DNA of 29,452 nt from a virus (IMGVR_UViG_3300046009_001082:1-29452); one strand, 5' to 3'; numbered from the stretch's first letter, positions 1 through 15,426 are shown. Notes: a model not told the origin generated them from the letters alone. Program-made: numbers and translations.

Positions 1-1125
1 GGATCTTTTTCTTAAATCAGGAGCTGTTTCAAAATCATTATTCATTGTCCAACCATAACCTTGTGGAGATTGTTCATCGCCTGCAAGAAATCTAGTATCT
101 CTTAAAATAGCTTTAGATTTTTCTGGGTTCCAATCTTGAAAATTTGTATTATAAATATCTTGGTCACCTATAAATTCTCCCATCTCTCCTGTATCAGGAT
201 TGTTCCAATAGGTTCTACTAGCATCGTTTTCTCCACTAAATAAACTAGCTCTTGCTTCTTCTGGGCTATTATACATAGTAGCATTTATAGCACTTGCAGG
301 ATATTGGTATCGTCTGTCACTAGTATCTTGTATATTATTAGGATTAGTAACTTGAAAAGAAAACTGAGGTTCATCACCAGGACCTCCGTAAGCCATCATG
401 TTACCACCGTTAGCATACATCATACCTCCATTACGCATCATACCCATTTGTTGCATCATAGCTGCATCTCCAGTAGCTGCACCTTGTTGCTCCATAGCTT
501 GTTGCTCCATCATTGCCATTTCTTCAGGACTCATTTGTTCAGGAGTACCTTGAGCCATATTAGGGTCCATAGGTGGTTGCATAGGTGGTTGGCCTTCTTG
601 ACCTTGTCCCATCATACTAGCTAAAGCATTTGGGTCTAGAGCCATAATCTCATCAATCTTTTTTTGTACTTCTTGTTGTTTATGAAACTCTTGAGCTTCT
701 TTTAACTTAGCTAAGCTACGTTCTGTGTCAGCCATTTCAATAGTATCATTCTCTCTTCTAGAATTTGGTTTATCCATTTTCTTAGAAGCCTCTGCAAAAG
801 TTTTACCAACAAAAGATTTAGGCAAGTTAAACTGAGCTACTGTTACAGCATCTACTTTTAACTGGTCAGAAAAGATATAATTTTCTTTATTTAATTTAGT
901 TTCACCTTGTTCTACTAGATTAGTTTGTCCATTAGGACTAGTACCTTGAGGAATGCCTCCTATTGGATTTTCTTCGTGAGAACCTCCTTCAGTAAACTCT
1001 GTAAGTTGATCCATCACTCCTCCACCTGCATAGATATTTCCTCCGTATTTCATTTGAGAAATAATTTTAGATTGTACACTTTGAGGTAGTGCTCTAAATC
1101 CTGGATTGTTAATTCCTTTATTCAT
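1..1125 (-). CDS. crAss-type cargo/internal virion protein, 3' end runs off the window (not in ORF track)
   Basis: Hand translation from ATG at 1125 stays open to position 1 (375 codons): MNKGINNPGFRALPQSVQSKIISQMKYGGNIYAGGGVMDQLTEFTEGGSHEENPIGGIPQG...LVEQGETK...YIFSDQL...GKTFAEASKK. The GGSHEENP/VExGET/YIFSD/KTFAEASK block resembles the conserved protein encoded downstream of the tail stabilisation gene in crAss-like phages. An M/Q/P-rich low-complexity region follows. Confidence 0.8.
   Translation of the reverse strand, partial: MNKGINNPGFRALPQSVQSKIISQMKYGGNIYAGGGVMDQLTEFTEGGSHEENPIGGIPQGTSPNGQTNLVEQGETKLNKENYIFSDQLKVDAVTVAQFNLPKSFVGKTFAEASKKMDKPNSRRENDTIEMADTERSLAKLKEAQEFHKQQEVQKKIDEIMALDPNALASMMGQGQEGQPPMQPPMDPNMAQGTPEQMSPEEMAMMEQQAMEQQGAATGDAAMMQQMGMMRNGGMMYANGGNMMAYGGPGDEPQFSFQVTNPNNIQDTSDRRYQYPASAINATMYNSPEEARASLFSGENDASRTYWNNPDTGEMGEFIGDQDIYNTNFQDWNPEKSKAILRDTRFLAGDEQSPQGYGWTMNNDFETAPDLRKRS
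382..438 (-). repeat. Three in-frame xxxGG units with an exact 21-nt (7-aa) period: MRNGG-MM-YANGG-NM-MAYGG
   Basis: Units at 424-438, 403-417 and 382-396. Confidence 0.75.
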
Positions 1126-1167: not shown

Positions 1168-2025
1168 TTATTTATTTCCAAAGAACATTGATTTTCCTGA
1201 ACCAAACCAACCTTTAGGTGCAGTCATCTTTTCAGGAGTAATTATCGCCTCTGTTAGTTGGTCTTCAATTCCTTGTTGTTGCTTAGATAGTTTTAAATCA
1301 TCCATACCTACCATACTACTACTTTGGTAAGGAGCTTTGTTTATTTCAGGATAAATGTTTAGTTTGCTGTAAGCATTGAAAGGTAATACAGACGGTTGTT
1401 GTATTTCTTCAGGTGTTACTTGTTGCATTCCCATAGTAGATTTTTGAGCAGTCCATTGTGCTAATAATTCAGGATTACTTTTTTTAAGTCTGTTGGGAAT
1501 ACTTTCAACCATCTTCATCGTATTAGCAACATAGTTAGATTCGTTACCTGCGTAACCTGCTCTAGCAACTGCTTCTAAATGTTCTTTAGCATTTGTTGCT
1601 TTAAACACACCGTTTTTTCTGTACCTAGAGTTTTCTATATAAAAGTTTACTTGTGCGTCTAGTCCTTCTTCAGGAGTGTCGTAGACACGCCACAAAGCTG
1701 CTTTACCATCTCCAGCAGTCATCGTAGTACTTTTACCTTTCCAAGTACCTCCAGCTTTTAGTCCTCCAAAATTATTATATTTAGAACTTAAACCTGAAGT
1801 AAGATTGCCACTCTCAAACATTATTTGAGCAGTAATTCCTAAAGCATCTAAGTTTTCTCCAGGAGCTAGTGCACCAGATTCTTTTGCTTTTGCTATACTT
1901 TTAGAAACATAATCGTAAACTAGTTTAGTACGGTCTTCTACACTTAACCCTTTTATACCATCATTAGGTGGGTCTTGCATTTGCAACTCTTGCAATTTGT
2001 TTGCGTATAATTCAGCTAGTCTCAT
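1168..2025 (-). CDS. Virion-associated peptidoglycan hydrolase, GH73 (glucosaminidase/FlgJ-like)
   Basis: AQIMFESG (catalytic Glu), NNFGGLKA, WRVYDTPEEG and AGYAGN (variant of GYATD). The C-terminal tail is Q/P-rich and probably disordered. Confidence 0.85.
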   Translation of the reverse strand: MRLAELYANKLQELQMQDPPNDGIKGLSVEDRTKLVYDYVSKSIAKAKESGALAPGENLDALGITAQIMFESGNLTSGLSSKYNNFGGLKAGGTWKGKSTTMTAGDGKAALWRVYDTPEEGLDAQVNFYIENSRYRKNGVFKATNAKEHLEAVARAGYAGNESNYVANTMKMVESIPNRLKKSNPELLAQWTAQKSTMGMQQVTPEEIQQPSVLPFNAYSKLNIYPEINKAPYQSSSMVGMDDLKLSKQQQGIEDQLTEAIITPEKMTAPKGWFGSGKSMFFGNK

Positions 2026-2029
2026 AGTC

Positions 2030-5000
2030 TTAGTATTCTTGAATGTTAGAAGGATAGAATCTAGTTAAAGGACCTCCGTATTTCTTTTGGCTAATTTTAC
2101 CTTGTGCCAGCATTTCTTCAGTAGGAGCCTTACCTGAACCTTTGTTAGCTCTAATGTTGTCCCATAATCCACGTTGAGAATAAGAACCGTCTGCACGTTT
2201 AATCATTTGTCCTCCGTTACCGTAGTAAGTACCGTTTTCAAATACATCGTACATGCTGTAATCCATGTGTCCACCGTTAGCGTAGTACTCATCTAAACTA
2301 GAACCGTAACCACTTGCTAAGAATCCTCCACCTGCTTTTTCTATTGTAGTTGGAACAATTGGGGCAGGTTGCATTTGTTCTAACTGTTTATTGTAAGCTC
2401 TTCTGTTAAAAATATCTTGTATAGAACTGTAACCTTTTTGGAACTCTACAGGTCTTCCTTCTTCTTTTGCTCTTTCTAATTCTCCTTGTACTAAATTACC
2501 TTCTTCGTCAAAAGTATTTTCGTAGTAGTTAGGATTGTAGCCAGTAACACCTTGTACTATTTTAGCTATAGGACTAGGATATTGAGTAGCATCTATATCA
2601 CTGATTACAGGAAATGCTAACTGCGTACTTTTACCTTTTTTAAACATAGGTTGATAACCCCATCTAGAAGGCTTGTTCATCTTAGGCAAGTTAAAACTTT
2701 TAGAACGAGCCATATCAAAATCTACATCTATACCTGGCCATTGTGGATACTCAGGACTGTAACTAGGATATTGAACTCCTTCTTGTTCCATACTACCTTC
2801 ATCAATAGTAATAGGGTAAGAAGGATTTTCTTGGCTAGCTACACTACTATTGTTTTCAATGTTTGCAGTATTATTTATTGTATTAGCTAGTATAGAGTTG
2901 TTAATTGCAATTTTTTGATTCAACTGCTCATTAGTTAATAACTTACCAGGAGTATCTTGAATTAAAGGAACTGCAGGAACTATAGGTTGTTGTACAATTG
3001 GTGGTATATTAACAGGTTGTACAGGTTGTACAGGCATTGCTGGTTGCATAGGTGCTTGAGCAACTACAGGCGGTTGTACAGGTGCGTAAGAACTAACAAA
3101 TGTTTGTAGTTTAGCAGGGTCAGCTTTCTTTATTCTATTAGGAATAGAGTTAGCCATCTGCATTACTTGTCTTGCATACTTCTTTTCATTGCCAGCATAG
3201 CCAGCATTTTGTACTAGTTGAGCATGTTCTTGAGCACTCTTTGCATTAAGTACTCCTGCTTTTCTATATCTAGGATTGTCTAAGTAAAAATTAATTTGGT
3301 CTCTTAACCCTTCTTCAGGTGTATCGTAAACTCTCCATTTAGATTTTACAGTCTCACCAGAAGCATTCATTCCTACGTATTTACCTCCTCGTTTAATATA
3401 AGAGTCATTTGCTTTTAACCCACCAAAGTTATTATACTTTTGAGTTAAACCTGATTTACCGTTTCCTGATTCTAATAGTATCTGAGCGGTTACACCCATT
3501 GCATTTAAATCTTCTCCTTCTCTAATCTTACCTGATGCTTTAGCTTCTTCTATTAGTTTAACAACTGTGTCATAGATGTACGCAGTCATATCATTAGTAC
3601 TTAACTTAGGTAGCTTAGGTTTAACTGGCATTGGGTCGCCTGCTCCATCTAAATCTCCTCCTGTAGCAAAGGGTAAAGCTGTAGTATCTCTGTAAATAGG
3701 AGTACCTTGAGATTGATAATAAGTAGGTATGTTTGGTGCTAGACTTCCTCCGTATTTTTTTTCTTGACTTAATGCTCCTACTCCTAATCCAACTGGTACA
3801 GCATAAGGTAATACACTTTTATAAATATTAGGATTAGTCATATCAAACATTCCGTTGTTACCTACAGCTGATTTAAGTTTTCTATTTGTAGGAAAAACTA
3901 ATTCATCTGCTTGATTCCAAGGACTAACTCTTTCTATTCCCCGTGTTTGGTTTCTAATAGCTACATCGTAATCTAACATTTGCTCTTCTAAAGGAACATC
4001 ACCTCGCCAATCCTTTTGTCTATGAAAGTTAAATAAATCATATTCTTTTTTCTGATTAATCAAATCTTCAGCACTTATAGGATTATTACCCTGACCATAT
4101 AATTCGTAAACAGTGGGTTCATAATTACCGTCTTTATGAATACTTTTTGAAGACAAAGAATAACTACTTGCTTTATTTTTATTAGGTGTTGTGTATATAC
4201 CTCTACCTGAATATCCACTATCGCCTAATTGAAATTTAGATTCATCAAAAGTATCAAACTTTTTAGCAGAACCATGATATTGAATAGTAGGACTACCATC
4301 AGGATTTACTAATTTAGAATTACCAAAAGCATTTTTAAAGTTTTGACTATTTTGTTGTACAAATTGTTCAGGTGTTCCTTGAAAAGCAGAACCGTCAGGA
4401 TTTTTCATCCATGTACCATTAGCTTTAGTTTGTTGTTCTATAGCATTGTATTCTTGCATCAATGGTGCATTTTCAGGAATTTCTTTATTCCAGCTAGCCC
4501 AATCTATTTCTGATTTAAAAGAATCTACAGAGCTTTTAGATTTTTTTCCAATAGGTTTTACAATAATATTTTCAAAACCTCCTTCATTACTTTTACCTAT
4601 TACTTTGTATCCTTCAGGTACATTACCAAATATTTCTCTTTCTACTCTCCTATTTATATTATCTGTAACTAATCTTGGGTCTGTGTAATCAATTGCGTGA
4701 AACCCTTCTGCTTCTTTAACGTATTTACTAGGTATAATAACTCTTTGCTTTCCTCTATTTTCAAATCCTATTGTAGCACCGTCACCTAAACTCCAAGACC
4801 TTTGGCTAGGATATGTAATTTTTTGACCATACTTTGTAGGTAATTTAGGATTTGCTCCTGGTGATACATAATAATTATTAATTCTTGTTAAAGGCTGATT
4901 AGCTTGACTTAAATCAGCAGAACTTGTTTGAGTAATATTATCAAGTATTTTACGATACTCTTGATTACTGTTAACAGAGTAAGGAGTGTTTAAATACTTT

Positions 5001-7012
5001 TTTAGTACTTCTGCTTCTTGATCTGTTAATGCTCTTGAATTTTTAATAGCTTCTGCATCAGCTAAAGATTTTTCTACTTTCCAAGCAATAGGTAACGCAC
5101 TATTTCCTGTTGCAACTTGATTGTAACCTTTTTGTAAATACTTACCTGCATCTACTACATCATCTAAAACATTAGTTCCAACTAAAGGAATAGGTGCTAA
5201 ATCTAAAGCAGCCATTCCTAAATTCCCAGCCATATCTGCATATTGACCTTGTTGATAATTTCTATAAGCAGCAGGAAGAGTATTAGTAGCTGCATCATAA
5301 ACACCATAGCCAGTTAGTCCTGCTTGTACAAGAGGATTTGCTAAAACTGCTGGAGCAAATGGAGCTAGTGGTGCGGCTACAGCAACACCTTGAGCTACTT
5401 TAGCTACATTAAGAGGATTGTCCATCCATCTACCGTCTCCATACCAAGACTTTGTTAAATTCTGTTGGTCTTCTGCAGTTGTTTTTGTTGCTTCTCTATC
5501 ATAAAATTTTCCATAGTTATCATAGAAATCTTTAAAACTTGCATCTGATATTTTACCTTGACTGTATAAATCTCTTAAAGCATCTACTCCTTGAGCAGAC
5601 ATTACATCTTTTACTTTAGCATCTTTCCAATTTTCTGAGTCTTTTTTCTTTAATACATTTAAAGCTTTTTGTGCTCGGTCAAAAGATTTTTTTTCTTTTT
5701 CTAACTCTTGTTTGTAAGATATTACTTGTTGCGTTAAAGATGGAATAGAACTTGTACCTTCTAAAGATTGTCTTTGACGTTCTAATCCTAAACTAGTTCT
5801 GTAATTATTATAAGCATTTTTAGCTTGTTCTACTTTTTGAAATAAGTTACCTTGAAGTTTTCTTTTACCTTCATCACCATAAACTGATTGTTCAGGTAAA
5901 TTAACATCTTTTATACAATTTTTACCATCCCAAACATATCCTTCAGGGCAGCCACTACCGCCTTCAGCCATTGTTCTTATAGTACCTCCTAAAGCAAAAC
6001 CATCATAACTATCTTCCGTAGGAATGTAAGATTTATTTTGCCAAGGAAATTCTTGTAGTTCGTCCGCACGTATATCTTGATTAATAAATCTAGGGTCAAC
6101 TTTTAAAATAGGTTTACCCCATTCATCTCTTCTAGCTTTAAACTCTTCTACAGTCTCATCGTAAGTACCTAATAAACTTTTACCTCCTGGAGATAGTTCA
6201 GGTAATCTTTGTGCATAAGTGGTGTCTCCTTGTAAAGGTAGTGGGTTTTCAGGATAAGGTATAGGGTTACGTTTAAAAGAGGGTAAGTTATCTTTTATTC
6301 TATGTAAAGGCATTTTTACTCCTAAGTGTGCTCCAAAAGTAGGCTTGAATTTTAAATTTTCTGAAGAGTTGTCTTTAATAGTACCTGGTGCTATAGGAGA
6401 GTTTATGCTTGATACAGCACCTTCTTCGTAAACAGTAGCTGTATCTTCTACTTCTTTTGCTTTACCAGTAGCAGGTGCGAAGTTTAAATTAGCTCCACCA
6501 AATACAGTAAACGGTGCTTTGTTGCCAAACTTAGGTCTCCATTCAAAATCTCCCCTAGCACCATACATCAAGAAGTCTTCAGCATTACCACCAGCATAAG
6601 GCATTAAACTGCCTGCAAATTTTCCAGGTTTTATTTCTCCTTTACGTCTGTTCTTAGCTCCAAAGTGAAATTGATAACCTGCATCCCAACCTAATACAGC
6701 ACCTTTTAATCTTTTAGCATCACTATTATATCCAGCACCTAAATTTACAACAGCATTTGCTGTGTGTTTTGGATTAGCCATTCCTCTATAACTTGCATCT
6801 AGTCCACCTGTCAAAGCAGTTCTTCCTGCAGGTGCGTTATAATTATAACCAATGTGAGGTTTTAAAGTCCATTCTTTCTTTTTACCATAGGTTCCTTCTA
6901 AACCTAATTCCATACTTGTTGTATTAAAACCTAACCCTGTAGTAGGATTAGTGTAAAGAGGTTGTAAGGTTAGGAAAGGATTTTTAGGCTTAAGTTTTTT
7001 AGGTATATCCAT
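2030..7012 (-). CDS. Large multidomain cargo/ejection protein: beta-barrel-like N-terminus, hydrophobic hairpin, R-S-E ART-like domain, ART-PolyVal-like domain, GH73 muramidase
   Basis: 1660 aa, directly after the muzzle gene. GH73 motifs AQILLESG/NNFGGLKA/AGYAGN at ~3130-3600. YHGS...GRGIYTT...LKSAVGNNGMFD at ~3815-4510. PLTR...RSWS...VEREI at ~4550-5030. Alternating Gly/aromatic strands at ~6310-6975. Confidence 0.75.
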   Translation of the reverse strand: MDIPKKLKPKNPFLTLQPLYTNPTTGLGFNTTSMELGLEGTYGKKKEWTLKPHIGYNYNAPAGRTALTGGLDASYRGMANPKHTANAVVNLGAGYNSDAKRLKGAVLGWDAGYQFHFGAKNRRKGEIKPGKFAGSLMPYAGGNAEDFLMYGARGDFEWRPKFGNKAPFTVFGGANLNFAPATGKAKEVEDTATVYEEGAVSSINSPIAPGTIKDNSSENLKFKPTFGAHLGVKMPLHRIKDNLPSFKRNPIPYPENPLPLQGDTTYAQRLPELSPGGKSLLGTYDETVEEFKARRDEWGKPILKVDPRFINQDIRADELQEFPWQNKSYIPTEDSYDGFALGGTIRTMAEGGSGCPEGYVWDGKNCIKDVNLPEQSVYGDEGKRKLQGNLFQKVEQAKNAYNNYRTSLGLERQRQSLEGTSSIPSLTQQVISYKQELEKEKKSFDRAQKALNVLKKKDSENWKDAKVKDVMSAQGVDALRDLYSQGKISDASFKDFYDNYGKFYDREATKTTAEDQQNLTKSWYGDGRWMDNPLNVAKVAQGVAVAAPLAPFAPAVLANPLVQAGLTGYGVYDAATNTLPAAYRNYQQGQYADMAGNLGMAALDLAPIPLVGTNVLDDVVDAGKYLQKGYNQVATGNSALPIAWKVEKSLADAEAIKNSRALTDQEAEVLKKYLNTPYSVNSNQEYRKILDNITQTSSADLSQANQPLTRINNYYVSPGANPKLPTKYGQKITYPSQRSWSLGDGATIGFENRGKQRVIIPSKYVKEAEGFHAIDYTDPRLVTDNINRRVEREIFGNVPEGYKVIGKSNEGGFENIIVKPIGKKSKSSVDSFKSEIDWASWNKEIPENAPLMQEYNAIEQQTKANGTWMKNPDGSAFQGTPEQFVQQNSQNFKNAFGNSKLVNPDGSPTIQYHGSAKKFDTFDESKFQLGDSGYSGRGIYTTPNKNKASSYSLSSKSIHKDGNYEPTVYELYGQGNNPISAEDLINQKKEYDLFNFHRQKDWRGDVPLEEQMLDYDVAIRNQTRGIERVSPWNQADELVFPTNRKLKSAVGNNGMFDMTNPNIYKSVLPYAVPVGLGVGALSQEKKYGGSLAPNIPTYYQSQGTPIYRDTTALPFATGGDLDGAGDPMPVKPKLPKLSTNDMTAYIYDTVVKLIEEAKASGKIREGEDLNAMGVTAQILLESGNGKSGLTQKYNNFGGLKANDSYIKRGGKYVGMNASGETVKSKWRVYDTPEEGLRDQINFYLDNPRYRKAGVLNAKSAQEHAQLVQNAGYAGNEKKYARQVMQMANSIPNRIKKADPAKLQTFVSSYAPVQPPVVAQAPMQPAMPVQPVQPVNIPPIVQQPIVPAVPLIQDTPGKLLTNEQLNQKIAINNSILANTINNTANIENNSSVASQENPSYPITIDEGSMEQEGVQYPSYSPEYPQWPGIDVDFDMARSKSFNLPKMNKPSRWGYQPMFKKGKSTQLAFPVISDIDATQYPSPIAKIVQGVTGYNPNYYENTFDEEGNLVQGELERAKEEGRPVEFQKGYSSIQDIFNRRAYNKQLEQMQPAPIVPTTIEKAGGGFLASGYGSSLDEYYANGGHMDYSMYDVFENGTYYGNGGQMIKRADGSYSQRGLWDNIRANKGSGKAPTEEMLAQGKISQKKYGGPLTRFYPSNIQEY

Positions 7013-7014
7013 TG

Positions 7015-10000
7015 TTAAAATATTTGAACATCAAAGTAAGAAATCAATCTATTCATTATCAATTCTTTGTTATAAGAATTATCAAAGTATAAATTTACAA
7101 TAAAATAAGAACTACGCAAACGAGCACGTTGATTGTTAGTGTCTCTAGGAATCTTAACTCTCCACTTATCAAATCTTCTTTTAATTCGATTAACTGAGTA
7201 AGGAACTTTTCCTGTATCTTGGTATTCATTGTAGATTCTAAAAGCAGTGATTGTTTGAGTCCTATCAACTACTTTATTATTATCTCTTACTATTGAATTG
7301 TATTCTAATGTTCTTAATATTTTATTTAAATCTGCTTCAGGGTTTACAACTAGTGAAATAAAACATTCTTCTACTTCATTGTAAAACTCTCCATAGTTTC
7401 CTATGTTGTGGACAAATCCTCTTTCAGCATTATTAACTTTCTTAGTTGTTATTAATGTATCTCCGTTCTCAATCCATATTGGAGGAGTTTGAGAAAGTCT
7501 TGTAGAAAAAGAAGCACTTAGTTCATCGTAGACTAAAGAGAAGTCTGTAACTTGTTTTAAGTCTGCTAAAAAGTCTGCATGTTCTAGAACTTCTAGAATA
7601 AGTTCGCTAGGACTTCCATCACTAGTAGTAAAGGTAGAAGTGATTACTACATAGTAATTAGTAGTTCCAGTAATCAACACAATATCAGAAACTTCGTAAG
7701 TAGTTTCTCTTGCTACTGTTTTAATCATTCCACTTGTAAGGAAAGTAAAAATAATCTCGTTGTTAATTAAATCTTTTCCTATGTGTACTCCTTTACCTAA
7801 AATAGGATTATCTCCTCCGTATTCTTTTCTTAAGAAGTTTCCTGCACCTAAGTTTTGTAAGAAAGAGTGCATTCCTTTTATTTCAGATAGTGGAGAATTA
7901 CCTTCTCCCATTAAGAATATCTTTCTATGAATAGCATCAAAGAAATAGATACCTGAATCAGTTTGTTTTACAGCCCATTGATGAATAGAACCGTGTTCTT
8001 TAGTATAGTATTGGTGTTTACCAAATCCTAAACCTGTACCTAATTGTGTAGGTACTCCGTCAGTTGCTGTAGTAATAGCAGCTCTGTTAATAGCATAAAT
8101 ACCTACAGCTCTATCTTGAATAAAAAAGATATTGTCTTTAAAATTAATTACTCTGTTAATAGGTCCGTAATCATCTATATCGTAATAGTTGTTTACACCA
8201 AACTTTGTCCAAGAATCTATTTGTTCGTTATTTATTTTAACATCAGATAAATAGCCTCTAACATCATTGATAACACATCCACTACTAGTTGAAGTAGGTT
8301 CTACAAAAAATGCTACATCTATGTTTTCTCTAGAGTTAACTAAGTTGTAAGCATACATATTACTTACGTCTTTAGCAGTAGGAGCTTTTGTATTATTATT
8401 TTCTTGTCTTAGTACTGGAGATTCATCTCCGTCAAAAGTATATTCTACTAATGTACGTAAGGTTGCTCCGTAAGCAAGGTCTTGATTGATTTGAGACTCT
8501 GTTACAAATACTTGTGTGTATGAATAAGTTTGAGCAAACCAAGGTTTTAAACCTGTTTTATATAACGCAGTGTCAAAGTCTACCATCTTTATTTGTAAAG
8601 TAGACATATTCATAAATATATCTCCACCAAACACAATAGGCGTAGTTTCAGAAGTATTAATGATAGGCGAGCATTGTATAAAAGCGTTTACTTCTAAAGT
8701 AGATTGTGAATAGCCTCCATATATTTCTGCTTTTGGTGCTATTAAATCTACTATTGGATAAGAAACATCAGAAGCTATTCCTATCGTTGTGACACCGCCT
8801 GATGCTTCGTTTTTAAAGTATTCAGTAGTTGGCACAGTAGGAACTGGTTGCTGTGTAATAGGGTCTACATCATAAGATTTTGTGTATCCTAATATGTTGC
8901 TACCACTTTTAGAAAAACTACTATCTGCAGGACTAGCATGGTCAGGGTCATTAAGATTATTTCCTGCATTATAAGCAAAATAATTACGTATCGTATAACC
9001 TCCCCAAATAGGTGTAATTTTATCTTGATATGTCGAATCATCGGGCATATTAAAATACTCTTTTTGGTCCCAAGCTTTTATATTTTCTATGCTATTAAAA
9101 GTAACTGCATTATAATTTTTTAATTTTACTCTTATATCTATAGTGTGCTCGGGCAAATCAATAGGACGTTTATCTGAAATAGTTGTAGATATGTCTGTAA
9201 AAGCATCGTTAATACTATACCCACCTGTTATTAGTAAACCAGTACTGCCGCCTAATGCATTATTTACTGTATTTTTATAATTAAAAGATATTTCAGGAGA
9301 GTAGAAACCTAAGTATTTATTTACAGCTAAAGCTGGACCTACAGGATTTTTAGTGCCTAAACTATCAAACGTACTGTTTCCTCCATTTTCGTCTAAATGT
9401 ATTACTTGCTGACTTCCATTAGCACTCAAATCAAAGTCACTGGATGCACTCTGTATTCTAAAATATTGGCATGTTCGTATTATACCTTGAGTCAATCTAC
9501 GTTTATCTGCATCAGTTCTTTGCACTCTTACTATTTGATAACCAGTAACATTAGAAAGTAAAATAGGGCAAGTTGAAAAGTCTAGACTAAATTGAATACC
9601 TAAGTTGTAGGCAATAGTAAATTGAGGTGTGACAGAGTCAGCTTGAGATAAAGGAAAGTAAGGAGTACCTGAAAGGTTGTTAACGCCATCTTCTTCTGAA
9701 ATATCAGGAAACTTAATATCTCCTATGTATTCTACAAAAGTAGCTTCTCCTTTTGTGGTATAAAAGATAATACCAAATCTATAAGTTTCTCCTCGTTTGT
9801 ATCCTCTTAACAAGCCTGATATAAATGGAGAGGCAGCATTAGGATAAGTAGAATTAAATCTTACTCCGTAACCATCATCTAAATCGTGGGAATCTCTAGG
9901 AAAGCCAAAAGGAACAGGTGCTAAAGACGCAATACCTGCTTGTACATCTCCATCAACAGTCATCGGTTCTAAGTGAAAAGTATAACTGATGTTGGGTCCT

Positions 10001-11262
10001 TCTCCTCCTAATCTAGCTCCGTCAGACTGGTATCTATATTGTTGATTAGTTTGCCAATTAGAATCCCAATGAGCGTCTTTATTTAGGGCAAGATTAAAAG
10101 CGTTTTGTAAATCGTTATCATCGTTACCTGAGCCTGGAGTAAACGGAGGTGTTATAGTTCCTCCTACGTTTCTATATCGTCTAGTTTTAGCATAAAAAGT
10201 TTCGTTAGGACCTAATAAACTAGCAAGATTAACTTGAGAGCCTTTAATATTAGAAACTATTAAACTATTATCTTTTTGAGTAAAAGTCTTAGGAGTTTTA
10301 AATGCAAAGTTTTTAGTAGCAAACGTGAATAACTCTTCAGTAGTTTGGCTTCCTTCAGCACCTGTGTAGGTAAACACTATTGAAGTGTTTGCTCCAATAC
10401 TTATTGTTTCAACACTTTTAACAGATGGAGTAGCTATACCATTTTCATAGTAAAGAACTAAAAATTCAATCTTGTTAAAGATGTTATAATTAGTAGTGTC
10501 TACAGTAACAGCAAATGATTTTCCTGTATTTATTGCAACAGGGTCTCCGTTATAATCAGCTGAGTTAGTTAGTTCAGAGTCTGATACAACGTGTATTAAG
10601 TTAGAGGGTGGAGAAACTAGTGTTTCTTTTCCGTCAAAAGTAATAAGCCTATAAGCAACTTGATACTCACCTGACATTAAAGAGCCTCCTCCTGCAATAG
10701 TAGTTAGTAAGGGTTGAGTAAATTCTACATTAGGATAGATGTCTACTAGTCCTGGGGCTAACGTAATTAGATTAGGGTCTTCTAAATTAATAGCTCTAAA
10801 GAAGTTATTATAATCTGTCCAATAAACTCTTTGTGTACAATCAGACTCATATCGTCCTAATGCTTCTATAGGCCAATCTTTACTAAAGTTAAGTAGAGGA
10901 CTATAGTATTTTAATGCAGGAAAGCCACTAAGTATTTCTCTAGTAGCTGTGTTATATTGTATATCGTAAATCCAACTCTTAGTATTGCTATCATCTGCTA
11001 CAAACACTATAATTCGATTTCTAATAGTAGTGTAGCCTATAATTTTAGGGTTAGATGCAGACCAAGATGAGCCGTTAAAAGTTCCCGAAGTGGGAATACT
11101 AAAAGATTCTACGTTGCCTTTCATATTAGTAAAGGCTCCTGTAGATTCACCTGAAGTAGTAGTAATTCTAATATCCAGTGCGTCAATATACAAATTAGGA
11201 GCTATACTATCGTAAGCAGTATCTTGATTAAGTCCTGTATAAGTATTAACATGTGGATTCAT
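7015..11262 (-). CDS. Tail stabilisation / muzzle protein (crAss-type, P22 gp10-like)
   Basis: 1415 aa, beta-rich. N-terminal GLNQD...DALDIRI, plus VYWTDYNN, GYKRGETYRFGIIFY and FGGDIF, and a C-terminal RRFDKWR...RLRSSY. It follows the tail tubular gene, as in crAss-like genomes. Confidence 0.8.
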   Translation of the reverse strand: MNPHVNTYTGLNQDTAYDSIAPNLYIDALDIRITTTSGESTGAFTNMKGNVESFSIPTSGTFNGSSWSASNPKIIGYTTIRNRIIVFVADDSNTKSWIYDIQYNTATREILSGFPALKYYSPLLNFSKDWPIEALGRYESDCTQRVYWTDYNNFFRAINLEDPNLITLAPGLVDIYPNVEFTQPLLTTIAGGGSLMSGEYQVAYRLITFDGKETLVSPPSNLIHVVSDSELTNSADYNGDPVAINTGKSFAVTVDTTNYNIFNKIEFLVLYYENGIATPSVKSVETISIGANTSIVFTYTGAEGSQTTEELFTFATKNFAFKTPKTFTQKDNSLIVSNIKGSQVNLASLLGPNETFYAKTRRYRNVGGTITPPFTPGSGNDDNDLQNAFNLALNKDAHWDSNWQTNQQYRYQSDGARLGGEGPNISYTFHLEPMTVDGDVQAGIASLAPVPFGFPRDSHDLDDGYGVRFNSTYPNAASPFISGLLRGYKRGETYRFGIIFYTTKGEATFVEYIGDIKFPDISEEDGVNNLSGTPYFPLSQADSVTPQFTIAYNLGIQFSLDFSTCPILLSNVTGYQIVRVQRTDADKRRLTQGIIRTCQYFRIQSASSDFDLSANGSQQVIHLDENGGNSTFDSLGTKNPVGPALAVNKYLGFYSPEISFNYKNTVNNALGGSTGLLITGGYSINDAFTDISTTISDKRPIDLPEHTIDIRVKLKNYNAVTFNSIENIKAWDQKEYFNMPDDSTYQDKITPIWGGYTIRNYFAYNAGNNLNDPDHASPADSSFSKSGSNILGYTKSYDVDPITQQPVPTVPTTEYFKNEASGGVTTIGIASDVSYPIVDLIAPKAEIYGGYSQSTLEVNAFIQCSPIINTSETTPIVFGGDIFMNMSTLQIKMVDFDTALYKTGLKPWFAQTYSYTQVFVTESQINQDLAYGATLRTLVEYTFDGDESPVLRQENNNTKAPTAKDVSNMYAYNLVNSRENIDVAFFVEPTSTSSGCVINDVRGYLSDVKINNEQIDSWTKFGVNNYYDIDDYGPINRVINFKDNIFFIQDRAVGIYAINRAAITTATDGVPTQLGTGLGFGKHQYYTKEHGSIHQWAVKQTDSGIYFFDAIHRKIFLMGEGNSPLSEIKGMHSFLQNLGAGNFLRKEYGGDNPILGKGVHIGKDLINNEIIFTFLTSGMIKTVARETTYEVSDIVLITGTTNYYVVITSTFTTSDGSPSELILEVLEHADFLADLKQVTDFSLVYDELSASFSTRLSQTPPIWIENGDTLITTKKVNNAERGFVHNIGNYGEFYNEVEECFISLVVNPEADLNKILRTLEYNSIVRDNNKVVDRTQTITAFRIYNEYQDTGKVPYSVNRIKRRFDKWRVKIPRDTNNQRARLRSSYFIVNLYFDNSYNKELIMNRLISYFDVQIF

Positions 11263-13746: not shown

Positions 13747-13905
13747 CTATCTGTTTTTAAAAGTAAAGTTTAAAATAGTAAACATATAAAATTCTCTTGA
13801 TACATCTATTTCAATAGTAAGAAGGTCTAAAGCAGAAATTCTTACTCTAATAGCTATCTTATCCCATTGTCTTCGATAGCCTTTCCAGTTGTTTCTAAAC
13901 TTCAT
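13747..13905 (-). CDS. 52-aa hypothetical protein (not in ORF track)
   Basis: MKFRNNWKGYRRQWDKIAIRVRISALDLLTIEIDVSREFYMFTILNFTFKNR*. The ATG overlaps the endolysin stop (TAATG). Confidence 0.75.
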   Translation of the reverse strand: MKFRNNWKGYRRQWDKIAIRVRISALDLLTIEIDVSREFYMFTILNFTFKNR

Positions 13906-14372
13906 TATTCTTTAATTTCAAAGTGCATCCAATCGTAATTCTTTTCTTTACCCAAACTAATAAAACCGTGTTTGTAAAAAATATCAATCATCGGTTTGTA
14001 TTCAGGTCTAGCAAATCTTGCTGTTCTGCTTGTTTCTTTTAGTGTGTTTCTTGCAGGGTCTAAATCAATAGCAATTCCCCAAGAATGTTTAGACCAAGCT
14101 GATCCACCTCTCATTTTACGAAAGGTAAAACAACCTCCAAATAAATCAATACCTAATCGTCTGATTTCTTCTAATCCATAAACCTCAAGTAATTCTTTAA
14201 AGACTGCTTCAAATTTAGTAGCTACTAGCTTATGGCATCTTAATCTAGTTACACTAGTATCTAAATCCCAAGCTAGTTTCATTGGATAAGGTAACTGAAC
14301 AGTTACTAAATAACCTGCACCTGTTTCATTAGGTGTTCCGTATTTTTTAATAGTTTGTGCTGTAGTTAACAT
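13905..14372 (-). CDS. Endolysin, peptidase M15 family (L-Ala-D-Glu/D,D-peptidase-like)
   Basis: SKHSWGIAIDLD (SxHxxGxAxD), upstream Arg in FRKMR, and DWMHFE as the third Zn ligand. Lies near the holin-like genes. Confidence 0.9.
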   Translation of the reverse strand: MLTTAQTIKKYGTPNETGAGYLVTVQLPYPMKLAWDLDTSVTRLRCHKLVATKFEAVFKELLEVYGLEEIRRLGIDLFGGCFTFRKMRGGSAWSKHSWGIAIDLDPARNTLKETSRTARFARPEYKPMIDIFYKHGFISLGKEKNYDWMHFEIKE

Positions 14373-14659
14373 TATTTCTTTTTTACAAAAAGTTTAGTAA
14401 TAAAAGTAGCTATTTTTTTAAGAACGTGACTTTCTGAATCTACTACTACTTCTGTGCGTCCTTCAACGTTTTTAACGTTTACATCAACTTTTTTACCATC
14501 GTAGTTAAACTCTTTGTTCTCACCTTCTTTAGTAAATTTTACATCTACATTGGGAGTATCTACTTCTACTTTTAAGTCTTTTCCTTTTTTCTCTACTTTA
14601 ACGTCTACTTTGTCTGTGTCTACATCTACGTTAAAATCTTTAATTTTTTTCTTAGCCAT
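14372..14659 (-). CDS. K/V/D-rich repetitive beta-strand protein (~95 aa, likely start MAKKKIKDF)
   Basis: Repeats such as VDTDKVDVKVEK, VDTPNVDVKFTK and DGKKVDVNVK, with an amphipathic C-terminal helix. ATG at 14659 has an A-rich leader and avoids overlap with the upstream gene. Confidence 0.7.
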   Translation of the reverse strand: MAKKKIKDFNVDVDTDKVDVKVEKKGKDLKVEVDTPNVDVKFTKEGENKEFNYDGKKVDVNVKNVEGRTEVVVDSESHVLKKIATFITKLFVKKK

Positions 14660-14669
14660 TTTAATTAAT

Positions 14670-14900
14670 TTAAGGGTTTGTGGTTTCTTCTTTATCACTA
14701 ACTGTTAATTGAGCAGTTGTTGCTATTGTAGCACTAACAGTTGCTAAATAAGTGGCAGTTGTGATGAGAGCTGTTGGTAAAGATACTGGAGCTGTGATGA
14801 TGATTCCTGCTATTGCTCCTGTTACTATTGCCCAACGTTGTACTCGTTTCCAAAATTTAGGTGTTTTTTCATTCCACCTTTCTTTAAAGTTCTTTTCCAT
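14670..14900 (-). CDS. Small membrane protein, putative holin/antiholin
   Basis: Basic N-terminus (ERWNEKTPKFWKRV) followed by two hydrophobic segments, within the lysis cassette. Confidence 0.6.
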   Translation of the reverse strand: MEKNFKERWNEKTPKFWKRVQRWAIVTGAIAGIIITAPVSLPTALITTATYLATVSATIATTAQLTVSDKEETTNP

Positions 14901-15426
14901 TATTATCTATTTTAGGTTCGTCTTTTACGTGTTTAGCTAATGCTTTTAACAAAGGTACGTATTCTGTCCAACCTAATCTTTTAAAGTTTTCTAAATTAGA
15001 TAATATTAAGTTGAGTAACACGTAGTTATAAAACATTCCATGTAACCATTCGTATATATTAAATTCGTATCCTATTAGATTAAAGCCTTTAATATTATTA
15101 GCTAATGCATTGGAAGAACCAATCATTATCATATAGACTAATAACTTTAACCAACCTTTTCCAAATAGTTCTGAGTCAAATTTTAAACCTTCTTTTTTAG
15201 AAGCCTTTAATCCTGTGTAAAATTCTAAGATAAAAAGTATAAGAATAATAATACCTACAATAGCTTTAATACCAAATATTAAATCAAAGTAATAACCAAA
15301 GGTTGCTGTGCAACTACTAATAGTTACTAAAGGTAAAGTAAGTTTAAGATGAAAAGCACTGTTTAAAAAATGAGTTAAACTATTGTATCCTGCGGTTGTT
15401 ACTAATTTAGTTAAAAATGTTTTCAT
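14884..15426 (-). CDS. Phage holin family protein (Phage_holin_4-like)
   Basis: 3-4 hydrophobic segments, EFYTGLKAS...FDS...GWLKLLVY and a C-terminal SNLENFKRLG. Confidence 0.7.
   Translation of the reverse strand: MKTFLTKLVTTAGYNSLTHFLNSAFHLKLTLPLVTISSCTATFGYYFDLIFGIKAIVGIIILILFILEFYTGLKASKKEGLKFDSELFGKGWLKLLVYMIMIGSSNALANNIKGFNLIGYEFNIYEWLHGMFYNYVLLNLILSNLENFKRLGWTEYVPLLKALAKHVKDEPKIDNNGKEL

Follow-up and report, generated by a model that had tools for sequence, protein, structure and literature searches.

The window considered here, the whole 29,452-base virus record IMGVR_UViG_3300046009_001082 (estimated completeness 23%), carries all of its long open reading frames (ORFs) on the minus strand. 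Pfam and PHROGs profiles identify terminase, portal, crassvirus capsid, tail rings, muzzle, glucosaminidase and cargo protein 1, and on this gene content the window is the virion block of a crAss-like phage, a phage order from which Bacteroidota is inferred as the host phylum (available text of PMC10136315). Between the muzzle and cargo-1 genes lies an ORF of 1660 amino acids (aa), encoding a modular protein (Table 1) with a predicted ADP-ribosyltransferase (ART) domain of the R-S-E (cholera-toxin-like) class at aa 630-824, followed in the same chain by a second ART domain of the H-Y-E class (ART-PolyVal, PF18760) and a glucosaminidase domain (PF01832). The R-S-E domain is divergent and, as a family of its own, is missed by Pfam and PHROGs.

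The fold of the domain was examined in an AF2 model of aa 630-824 (27-row alignment; predicted local distance difference test score, pLDDT, 80.5; predicted template modelling score, pTM, 0.80). In this model, helices at model residues 35-67 are followed by strands at 79-82 (with R710), 109-113 (with S-W-S), 126-131, 142-144, 164-167 (opening with E793), 173-181 and 184-191, so that R710, S739-S741 and E793 lie on three separate strands of the split beta-sheet ART fold, a placement which, together with the fold match, suggests that R, S and E would converge in one nicotinamide adenine dinucleotide (NAD) cleft. Foldseek comparison with the PDB returned 15 matches at E<=1e-3, every one of them ExoS, C2-I, VIP2, Plx2a, C3, CDTa or iota, all R-S-E ARTs. 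A Foldseek-independent search of 48,161 representative chains (VIA) gave a top Z of 10.9 (root-mean-square deviation, rmsd, 3.0; 148 residues aligned), and its ranks 1-23 (Z 10.9 to 4.5) are VIP2/C3-type ART domains, some by their titles and others which we take to be such; the first unrelated fold followed at Z 2.8, and DarT/Tpt1 at Z 2.1-2.5. A second structure comparison placed C3 at Z 11.2; across both comparisons the top matches lie at Z 10.9-11.2 with rmsd ~3.0 over 148-155 residues. The structural alignments cover model residues ~8-193, including both the helical N-terminal part and the VIP2/C3-type core. In BFVD the top named matches are phage VIP2 and MuF-ART proteins, with the NAD-arginine ART of Shigella phage SP18 at rank 31; T4 Alt, ModA and ModB were not among the matches of the PDB fold searches. 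A profile alignment with six T4-like Alt domains, itself a weak match, pairs R710 with Y-R, S-W-S with S-T-S and E-R-E with E-M-E. The R-S-E class (VIP2/C3/Alt-like), proposed in a sequence-only reading, is thereby borne out by model and searches alike, and the domain almost certainly has this predicted fold.

The same reading had pointed to PLTR, RSWS (4790-4801) and VEREI followed by YKV, all of which were located where it had placed them in the minus-strand ORF. It had bounded the domain at 4550..5030; a domain is indeed present there, but the conserved unit begins earlier, at ~5125. The motif string was dropped as stand-alone evidence: a permissive R/K..SxS..ExE pattern, built on the spacing seen in the domain, has one match in the 23 minus-strand ORFs, at R710, compared with 1.73 expected per shuffle of these ORFs. 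The string is not above chance; the R-S-E assignment rests on conservation and fold. Conservation was tallied over the 123 domain rows that exceed 150 aa, which come from 122 proteins, with near-duplicates kept and fragments dropped. Position 710 is basic in 123/123 rows (R112/K11), and the S-x-S equivalent reads [STA]-[WF]-[STA] in 123/123 (739: S84/T33/A6; 740: W65/F58; 741: S109/T13/A1). The E-x-E positions are E118/S3/gap2 at 791 and E121/gap2 at 793, and R757 is invariant (123/123). Position 738 varies (R64/T44/S12/V2/K1), and R738 of 'RSWS' was abandoned as a family-wide residue once the third subfamily entered the alignment. The motif set is otherwise kept across three subfamilies that are 25-44% identical to each other. 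Conservation, strand placement and profile alignment together uphold the R, S-x-S, E-x-E register, and on conservation and model the predicted domain is very probably a catalytically active enzyme.

The family emerged in stages from sequence searches: a one-sequence search found 8 proteins, a 6-row profile 42, and a 27-row profile, its rows drawn from these 42 at <85% identity, 103 representatives among 1.84 billion. The resulting pool of 127 proteins (42, 4 contig proteins and 81 new ones) has a domain match in 126 and comprises at least three subfamilies. The proteins are mostly long (median 1222 aa; >=700 aa in 99/122 and <400 aa in 7/122). Scanned with Pfam and PHROGs, the 27 profile members gave no ART match at E<=1; as a control, T4 Alt matches PF03496 at 5.8e-36. 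Full-length Pfam scans likewise gave no PF03496 match among the first 42 proteins and 77 of the 81 new ones, the scans having left out three fragments and one over-long protein. No relative of the domain was found among PDB sequences with single-sequence or profile query (best E 0.22, a sialidase taken as chance), in the ESM Atlas, by tblastn against 50,697 phage records (E<=1), or in a first viral_contigs scan and a metagenome_contigs scan. Pfam partner domains across the family are kinase, GNAT, SLT, lysozyme, amidase, YkuD, glucosaminidase and metallopeptidase, some below the Pfam cut-off. Polyvalent proteins often, though not always, carry a zincin-like processing peptidase. A DUF6782 metallopeptidase was matched once; the HExxH string is absent from the window protein and occurs in 17/46 family proteins, a count made without a chance control.

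The neighbouring ART-PolyVal domain was matched at 47.5 bits (cut-off 31.2), with H913, Y940 and E1037 as its H-Y-E residues. The sequence-only claim of two ART classes back to back thus holds for the window protein, but only a minority of the family has the tandem. Of 122 proteins, 8 carry a full ART-PolyVal-like domain after the R-S-E domain, with all three subfamilies represented (P0002, P0003, P0032, P0036, L005, P0078, P0089 and P0124, L005 and P0036 being identical in this region), and a ninth protein has the same linker, which is 62-74 aa long. ART-PolyVal is above the Pfam cut-off in three of the eight, and H-Y-[ED], read from the alignment, is kept in six. The second slot of P0003 and P0124, and also P0080, holds an ART-PolyVal-like sequence with no His in the aligned column and a Y-R-G string nearby; these sequence variants suggest a changed or decayed active site.

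Swapping of the slots among relatives, which the sequence-only reading had singled out as worth checking, is shown by slot identities, DNA comparison and loss of the cassette. Identity between the window protein and P0003 is 94% for the R-S-E domain and 35% for ART-PolyVal; with P0089 the figures are 30% and 65%. In the related contig L005, the ring proteins are 96-97% identical to those of the window, and its tandem protein shares 92% identity with that of the window immediately upstream, 94% in the glucosaminidase domain, 38% in the R-S-E domain and 35% in the ART-PolyVal domain; at the DNA level the anchors are 91.5%, 86% and 92% identical and the stretches for aa 638-789 and 904-1046 are unalignable. 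The R-S-E domain occurs without ART-PolyVal in P0004, P0038, P0040 and P0041, and P0025 contains two R-S-E domains (aa 425-647 and 1284-1493) of different subfamilies. In the orthologue P0125, aa ~352-1087 are absent exactly between two GG motifs, with flanks 85% and 81% identical. Of the 47 domain copies, 11 stand at the end of their protein (some of these proteins may be fragments) and 36 have long tails falling into 22 downstream clusters; on the 47-row tree the tandem label requires 3 changes, a value as low being reached in 216/500 shuffles, and is not clustered. An obligate ART pair was rejected on the 8/122 frequency, the reassorting partners and the tree shuffles. As far as these sequence comparisons go, the cassette is swappable, its two slots reassort independently and the tandem is one of its states; coupling of both enzymes is unsupported for this reason, and the preferred reading is that of two separate payloads rather than a two-step enzyme.

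Other occupants of the slots were also observed. The first slot of P0126 (aa 660-926) holds another domain with kinase-like motifs discerned by eye, a reading not confirmed by Pfam, PHROGs, PDB sequences or hhalign, and the same eye-read domain lies downstream of the R-S-E domain in P0042, P0043 and P0064. A domain of ~220 aa takes the place of ART-PolyVal in the second slot of P0004 (aa 876-1096), P0126, P0073 and P0047. The same linker and an ART-PolyVal domain near the C-terminus were found at 1245-8843 of L008 (MH552500.1, crAssphage ctcc615), in a protein that is annotated as RNA polymerase (RNAP)-associated and fused to a zincin; the ART domain is unnamed in the record.

Table 1. Features of the 1660-aa ORF and its neighbours, with positions counted from the first base of the window
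Feature	Position	Strand	Basis
1660-aa modular (polyvalent-type) protein, first gene after muzzle	2030..7012	-	ORF call, Pfam/PHROGs
Predicted 10-stranded beta-barrel, N-terminal	6293..7012	-	structure model, pLDDT 62
GG motifs FALGG, MAEGG, N-terminal border of dispensable cassette	5957..5998	-	motif search, orthologue comparison
Pair of hydrophobic segments, starting at aa 539 and aa 598, ahead of R-S-E domain	5153..5398	-	sequence
R-S-E (Alt/VIP2/C3-type) ART domain, aa 630-824 (predicted)	4541..5125	-	motifs, conservation, AF2 fold
Conserved N-terminal ATGNS..AWK anchor, part of R-S-E domain	5078-5125	-	family conservation
R710, strand-1 Arg	4883..4885	-	R112/K11 of 123 rows
S739-W740-S741, S-T-S equivalent (S739 4796-4798, S741 4790-4792)	4790..4798	-	family conservation, model
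E791-R792-E793, E-x-E motif (E791 4640-4642, E793 4634-4636)	4634..4642	-	family conservation, model
Conserved linker KSEIDW...NPDGS...QFVQQNS between both ART slots	4328..4516	-	family alignment
ART-PolyVal PF18760, aa 905-1056	3845..4300	-	Pfam E 3.9e-12
ART-PolyVal residues H913, Y940, E1037	4274-4276, 4193-4195, 3902-3904	-	alignment
Conserved tail anchor SAVGNNGMFD..., end of second slot	3815..3871	-	family alignment
KKYGG, C-terminal cassette border	3746..3760	-	motif search, orthologue comparison
Glucosaminidase domain PF01832, aa 1165-1289	3146..3520	-	Pfam E 8e-21
Crassvirus muzzle gene, upstream neighbour	7015..11262	-	Pfam PF25731 E 1.6e-135
Stand-alone glucosaminidase gene, downstream neighbour	1168..2025	-	Pfam
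Crassvirus cargo protein 1, extends beyond the window	1..1125	-	Pfam PF25725 E 4.4e-27

The gene neighbourhood bears on the fate of the protein. A muzzle gene is found by Pfam upstream of the family gene in the window and in three of four related contigs; the fourth has ring-1 followed by a 2315-aa gene at the muzzle place, a candidate muzzle by position only. In phage phi14:2, five genes after the muzzle (g070-g066) are annotated from virion tandem mass spectrometry (MS/MS), and the post-muzzle products of crAss001 are stored in the virion and ejected (available text of PMC10172136). A [YFM]xxGG motif, picked after inspection of the window protein, occurs 149 times in 46 family proteins compared with 41.5 expected, 228 times compared with 72.1 in 76 family proteins found after that choice, and 6 times compared with 0.56 in cargo-1; structural proteins show no enrichment (5 compared with 8.6). 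Homology breakpoints fall near GG motifs in 75/427 cases (random mean 47.4, maximum 72), an excess that is a lead only because the ends are not independent. The GG motifs are possible processing, packaging or recombination marks. A hydrophobic segment lies within 130 aa upstream of 31/46 and 43/70 domains, the corresponding figures for other blocks being 22/313 and 32/556, and in the window protein the two segments form a possible membrane-crossing element, as judged from sequence. The protein also combines disparate domains in one chain (R-S-E ART, ART-PolyVal and glucosaminidase), is encoded in the virion module and varies in architecture among relatives, all features of polyvalent proteins. 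It is likely carried in the virion and delivered into the host cell, where it would modify proteins.

Two further features of the neighbourhood were observed. The fused glucosaminidase domain and the stand-alone glucosaminidase of the downstream gene are related, and the same pair is present in L005. The tail gene block encloses a lysis module consisting of an M15 peptidase endolysin and a holin-like gene (13905-15426, minus strand; Pfam/PHROGs).

Taken together, the account that we favour, and consider rather probable as a whole, is that the divergent R-S-E ART is likely active, is packed as modular cargo, is ejected and mono-ADP-ribosylates host proteins, probably on arginine; we infer every step of it beyond fold and gene context. 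The protein would be packed with the crAss-like virion cargo and ejected at infection, its glucosaminidase part would open peptidoglycan, and the cassette would perhaps be cut free from that part near the GG motifs. The hydrophobic segments would guide the cassette into the NAD-containing cytoplasm. There, mono-ADP-ribosylation of host proteins would be the task of the R-S-E domain, and the H-Y-E domain would act on some other target. The E-x-E pattern is usual for Arg-specific ARTs, and the Arg acceptor is proposed on the strength of this motif. The purpose may be similar to that of T4 Alt, namely takeover of host machinery or disabling of early defence.

Several observations weigh against this account. 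The strand-1 Arg is replaced by Lys in 11/123 rows, the middle residue of S-x-S is W/F and not T, and Ser stands at the E791 position in 3/123. TM-scores among the top PDB matches are modest (0.41-0.51). The match to the profile of six Alt domains is non-significant alone (probability 2.3%, P 0.021; reversed control 0.45), a global-mode comparison with the same six domains gave nothing, and with T4 Alt as a single sequence the alignment was confined to one helix. Domain II of anthrax lethal factor (LF), which we take to be an inactive ART fold, scores Z 9.0, so that an ART fold can be inactive. P0125 lacks the cassette, which is to say that the cassette is dispensable, neither the L006 protein nor phi14:2 g067 or g068 has GG motifs, and the Pfam scan gave no crAss_CARG1 match for the 1660-aa protein itself.

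A catalytically dead ART fold serving in binding or scaffolding would agree with the LF score and with the low identity (11-18%) to active ARTs among the top matches; it is hardly to be expected given that every one of the 121 ungapped rows has E at 793 and that position 710 is basic throughout subfamilies of 25-34% identity. Slightly less improbable, and still very unlikely, is a coupled pair of ARTs, acting as prime and extend or on one target complex, with the tandem selected as a unit. The presence of the tandem in all three subfamilies, the conserved 62-74 aa linker and the 3 changes on the 47-row tree speak for such a pair, whereas the tandem in 8/122 proteins, the linker in 9, partners reassorting at 94%/35% and 30%/65%, the 22 downstream clusters for 36 copies with 11/47 ending the protein, the unclustered label (216/500) and the His missing from the aligned column in 2/8 tandems (P0003 and P0124) speak against it.

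An enzyme with a real activity may also remain in the cell in which it is made, being produced late and acting there in superinfection exclusion or in the tuning of assembly or lysis. This alternative draws on the predicted N-terminal barrel, which could be an outer-membrane protein, and on the suggestion that ARTs of the Alt/VIP2 kind may counter immunity aimed at the packaging apparatus (available text of PMC9503650). The N-terminal 240 aa were modelled as a 10-stranded beta-barrel (8-row alignment) whose best match is a designed transmembrane barrel (Z 14.5, rmsd 2.5, 143 residues aligned); soluble nitrobindin-like and outer-membrane barrels follow at Z 10-12, so that membrane and soluble types are both among the matches, and a search with the barrel found just 10 proteins. 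Retention in the producing cell is improbable in view of the muzzle/cargo-1 position, the phi14:2 MS/MS block, the GG motif common with cargo-1 and the fused peptidoglycan hydrolase. A somewhat better case, though an unlikely one, can be made for an active R-S-E enzyme whose acceptor is not protein Arg, acting as an NADase, in ModB-like transfer of NAD-capped RNA, or in nucleic-acid modification, for example to blunt NAD-based defence. NADases occur among both R-S-E and H-Y-E ARTs, and ModB RNAylates (available text of PMC9503650). An unusual acceptor site could account for the invariant R757 and for W/F in S-x-S, but E-x-E is kept in 118/123 rows, and the helical N-terminal part and the best fold matches are those of protein-modifying ARTs, with the DNA-modifying DarT at Z 2.2-2.5. 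Injection of an arginine-modifying enzyme is retained as the preferred account.

T4 Alt, the phage Alt/VIP2 proteins (PF03496) and the MuF-VIP2 head fusions (PMC5512222, PMC9503650) share with the window protein the R-S-E fold and motif register, a gene in the virion module and, as proposed here, delivery with the DNA. Many Alt/VIP2 and N4-like ARTs are MuF-fused and head-packed, and ARTs occur in only 3% of sipho- and podoviruses (available text of PMC9503650). The window family differs in having no PF03496 or PHROG ART match, in its S-[WF]-S motif, and in being an internal swappable module of multi-domain proteins of a podovirus-type crAss-like phage; library scans returned no MuF match for it. 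Toxin-type and effector ARTs, namely VIP2, C2-I, iota, C3, ExoS, Certhrax and a Listeria ART-ARH effector (PDB entries of toxin-type matches 1qs1, 2j3z, 3bw8, 6gn0, 4fk7, 8za7), are the best structural matches (Z 10-11, rmsd ~3 A over ~150 residues), at 11-18% identity to the window domain. The Pfam and PHROG scans of the window contain no toxin binding or delivery component, and the phage virion-module context points to a bacterial target, unlike that of the toxin-type ARTs.

Injected polyvalent proteins carry kinases, GNATs, lysozymes and peptidases (Iyer et al. 2017, PMC5512222), and the window family likewise joins disparate activities in one chain, with ART-PolyVal, kinase, GNAT, lysozyme and peptidase as partners across its members. 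By contrast, the R-S-E domain is the constant element of this family and ART-PolyVal an occasional neighbour (8/122); ART-PolyVal is already present in the crAss RNAP-associated protein, and the same linker precedes both. Iyer et al. state that Alt/VIP2-type ARTs are absent from polyvalent proteins, to which the window family is an apparent exception. Crassvirus C1, C2 and the virion RNAP subunits (Bayfield et al. 2023, PMC10172136) come from the same post-muzzle block, and the GG motif is common with C1; compared with the cargo described in the available text of that paper, the window has an extra gene between muzzle and C1. The same text names gp45-gp50 as cargo and mentions no ART, ADP-ribosylation terms not having been searched there. 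The term 'crAss' is absent from the main text of PMC9503650, the crAss rows seen in its supplement being genome lists, and the available main text of Yutin 2021 (PMC7886860) has no occurrence of the terms searched. No paper on ARTs in crAss-like virions was found by title or start of abstract, although subscription papers and the architecture lists of PMC5512222 could hold a case. Head-packaged R-S-E ARTs are already known; the present domain would work in the same way, yet it falls outside the PF03496 profile and constitutes a separate family. Its setting is a crAss-like protein of polyvalent type, in which an H-Y-E ART is sometimes its neighbour.

A more far-reaching possibility, offered tentatively, is that the first post-muzzle cargo protein of crAss-like phages houses a polymorphic effector system, in which a GG-bounded cassette with a membrane-crossing hairpin and two recombination-refilled slots is injected, the GG motifs being processing or packaging marks, and that two chemically different ADP-ribosylation attacks precede all phage gene expression. 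Recombination would take place at the conserved anchors, and the slots would receive R-S-E ARTs from any of the three subfamilies, H-Y-E/D ARTs, or kinase-like and other enzymes.

The analysis assigns a fold and a likely chemistry to a family that standard profiles overlook and that has at least 122 unannotated phage proteins. Should the enzyme be active, injection of host-modifying enzymes would be a trait that crAss-like phages share with T4, and the rapid exchange of the payload would point to an arms race. Proteins with both ARTs, with one ART, with another domain in the slot and with no cassette form a natural series on which the roles of slots and GG motifs can be tested.

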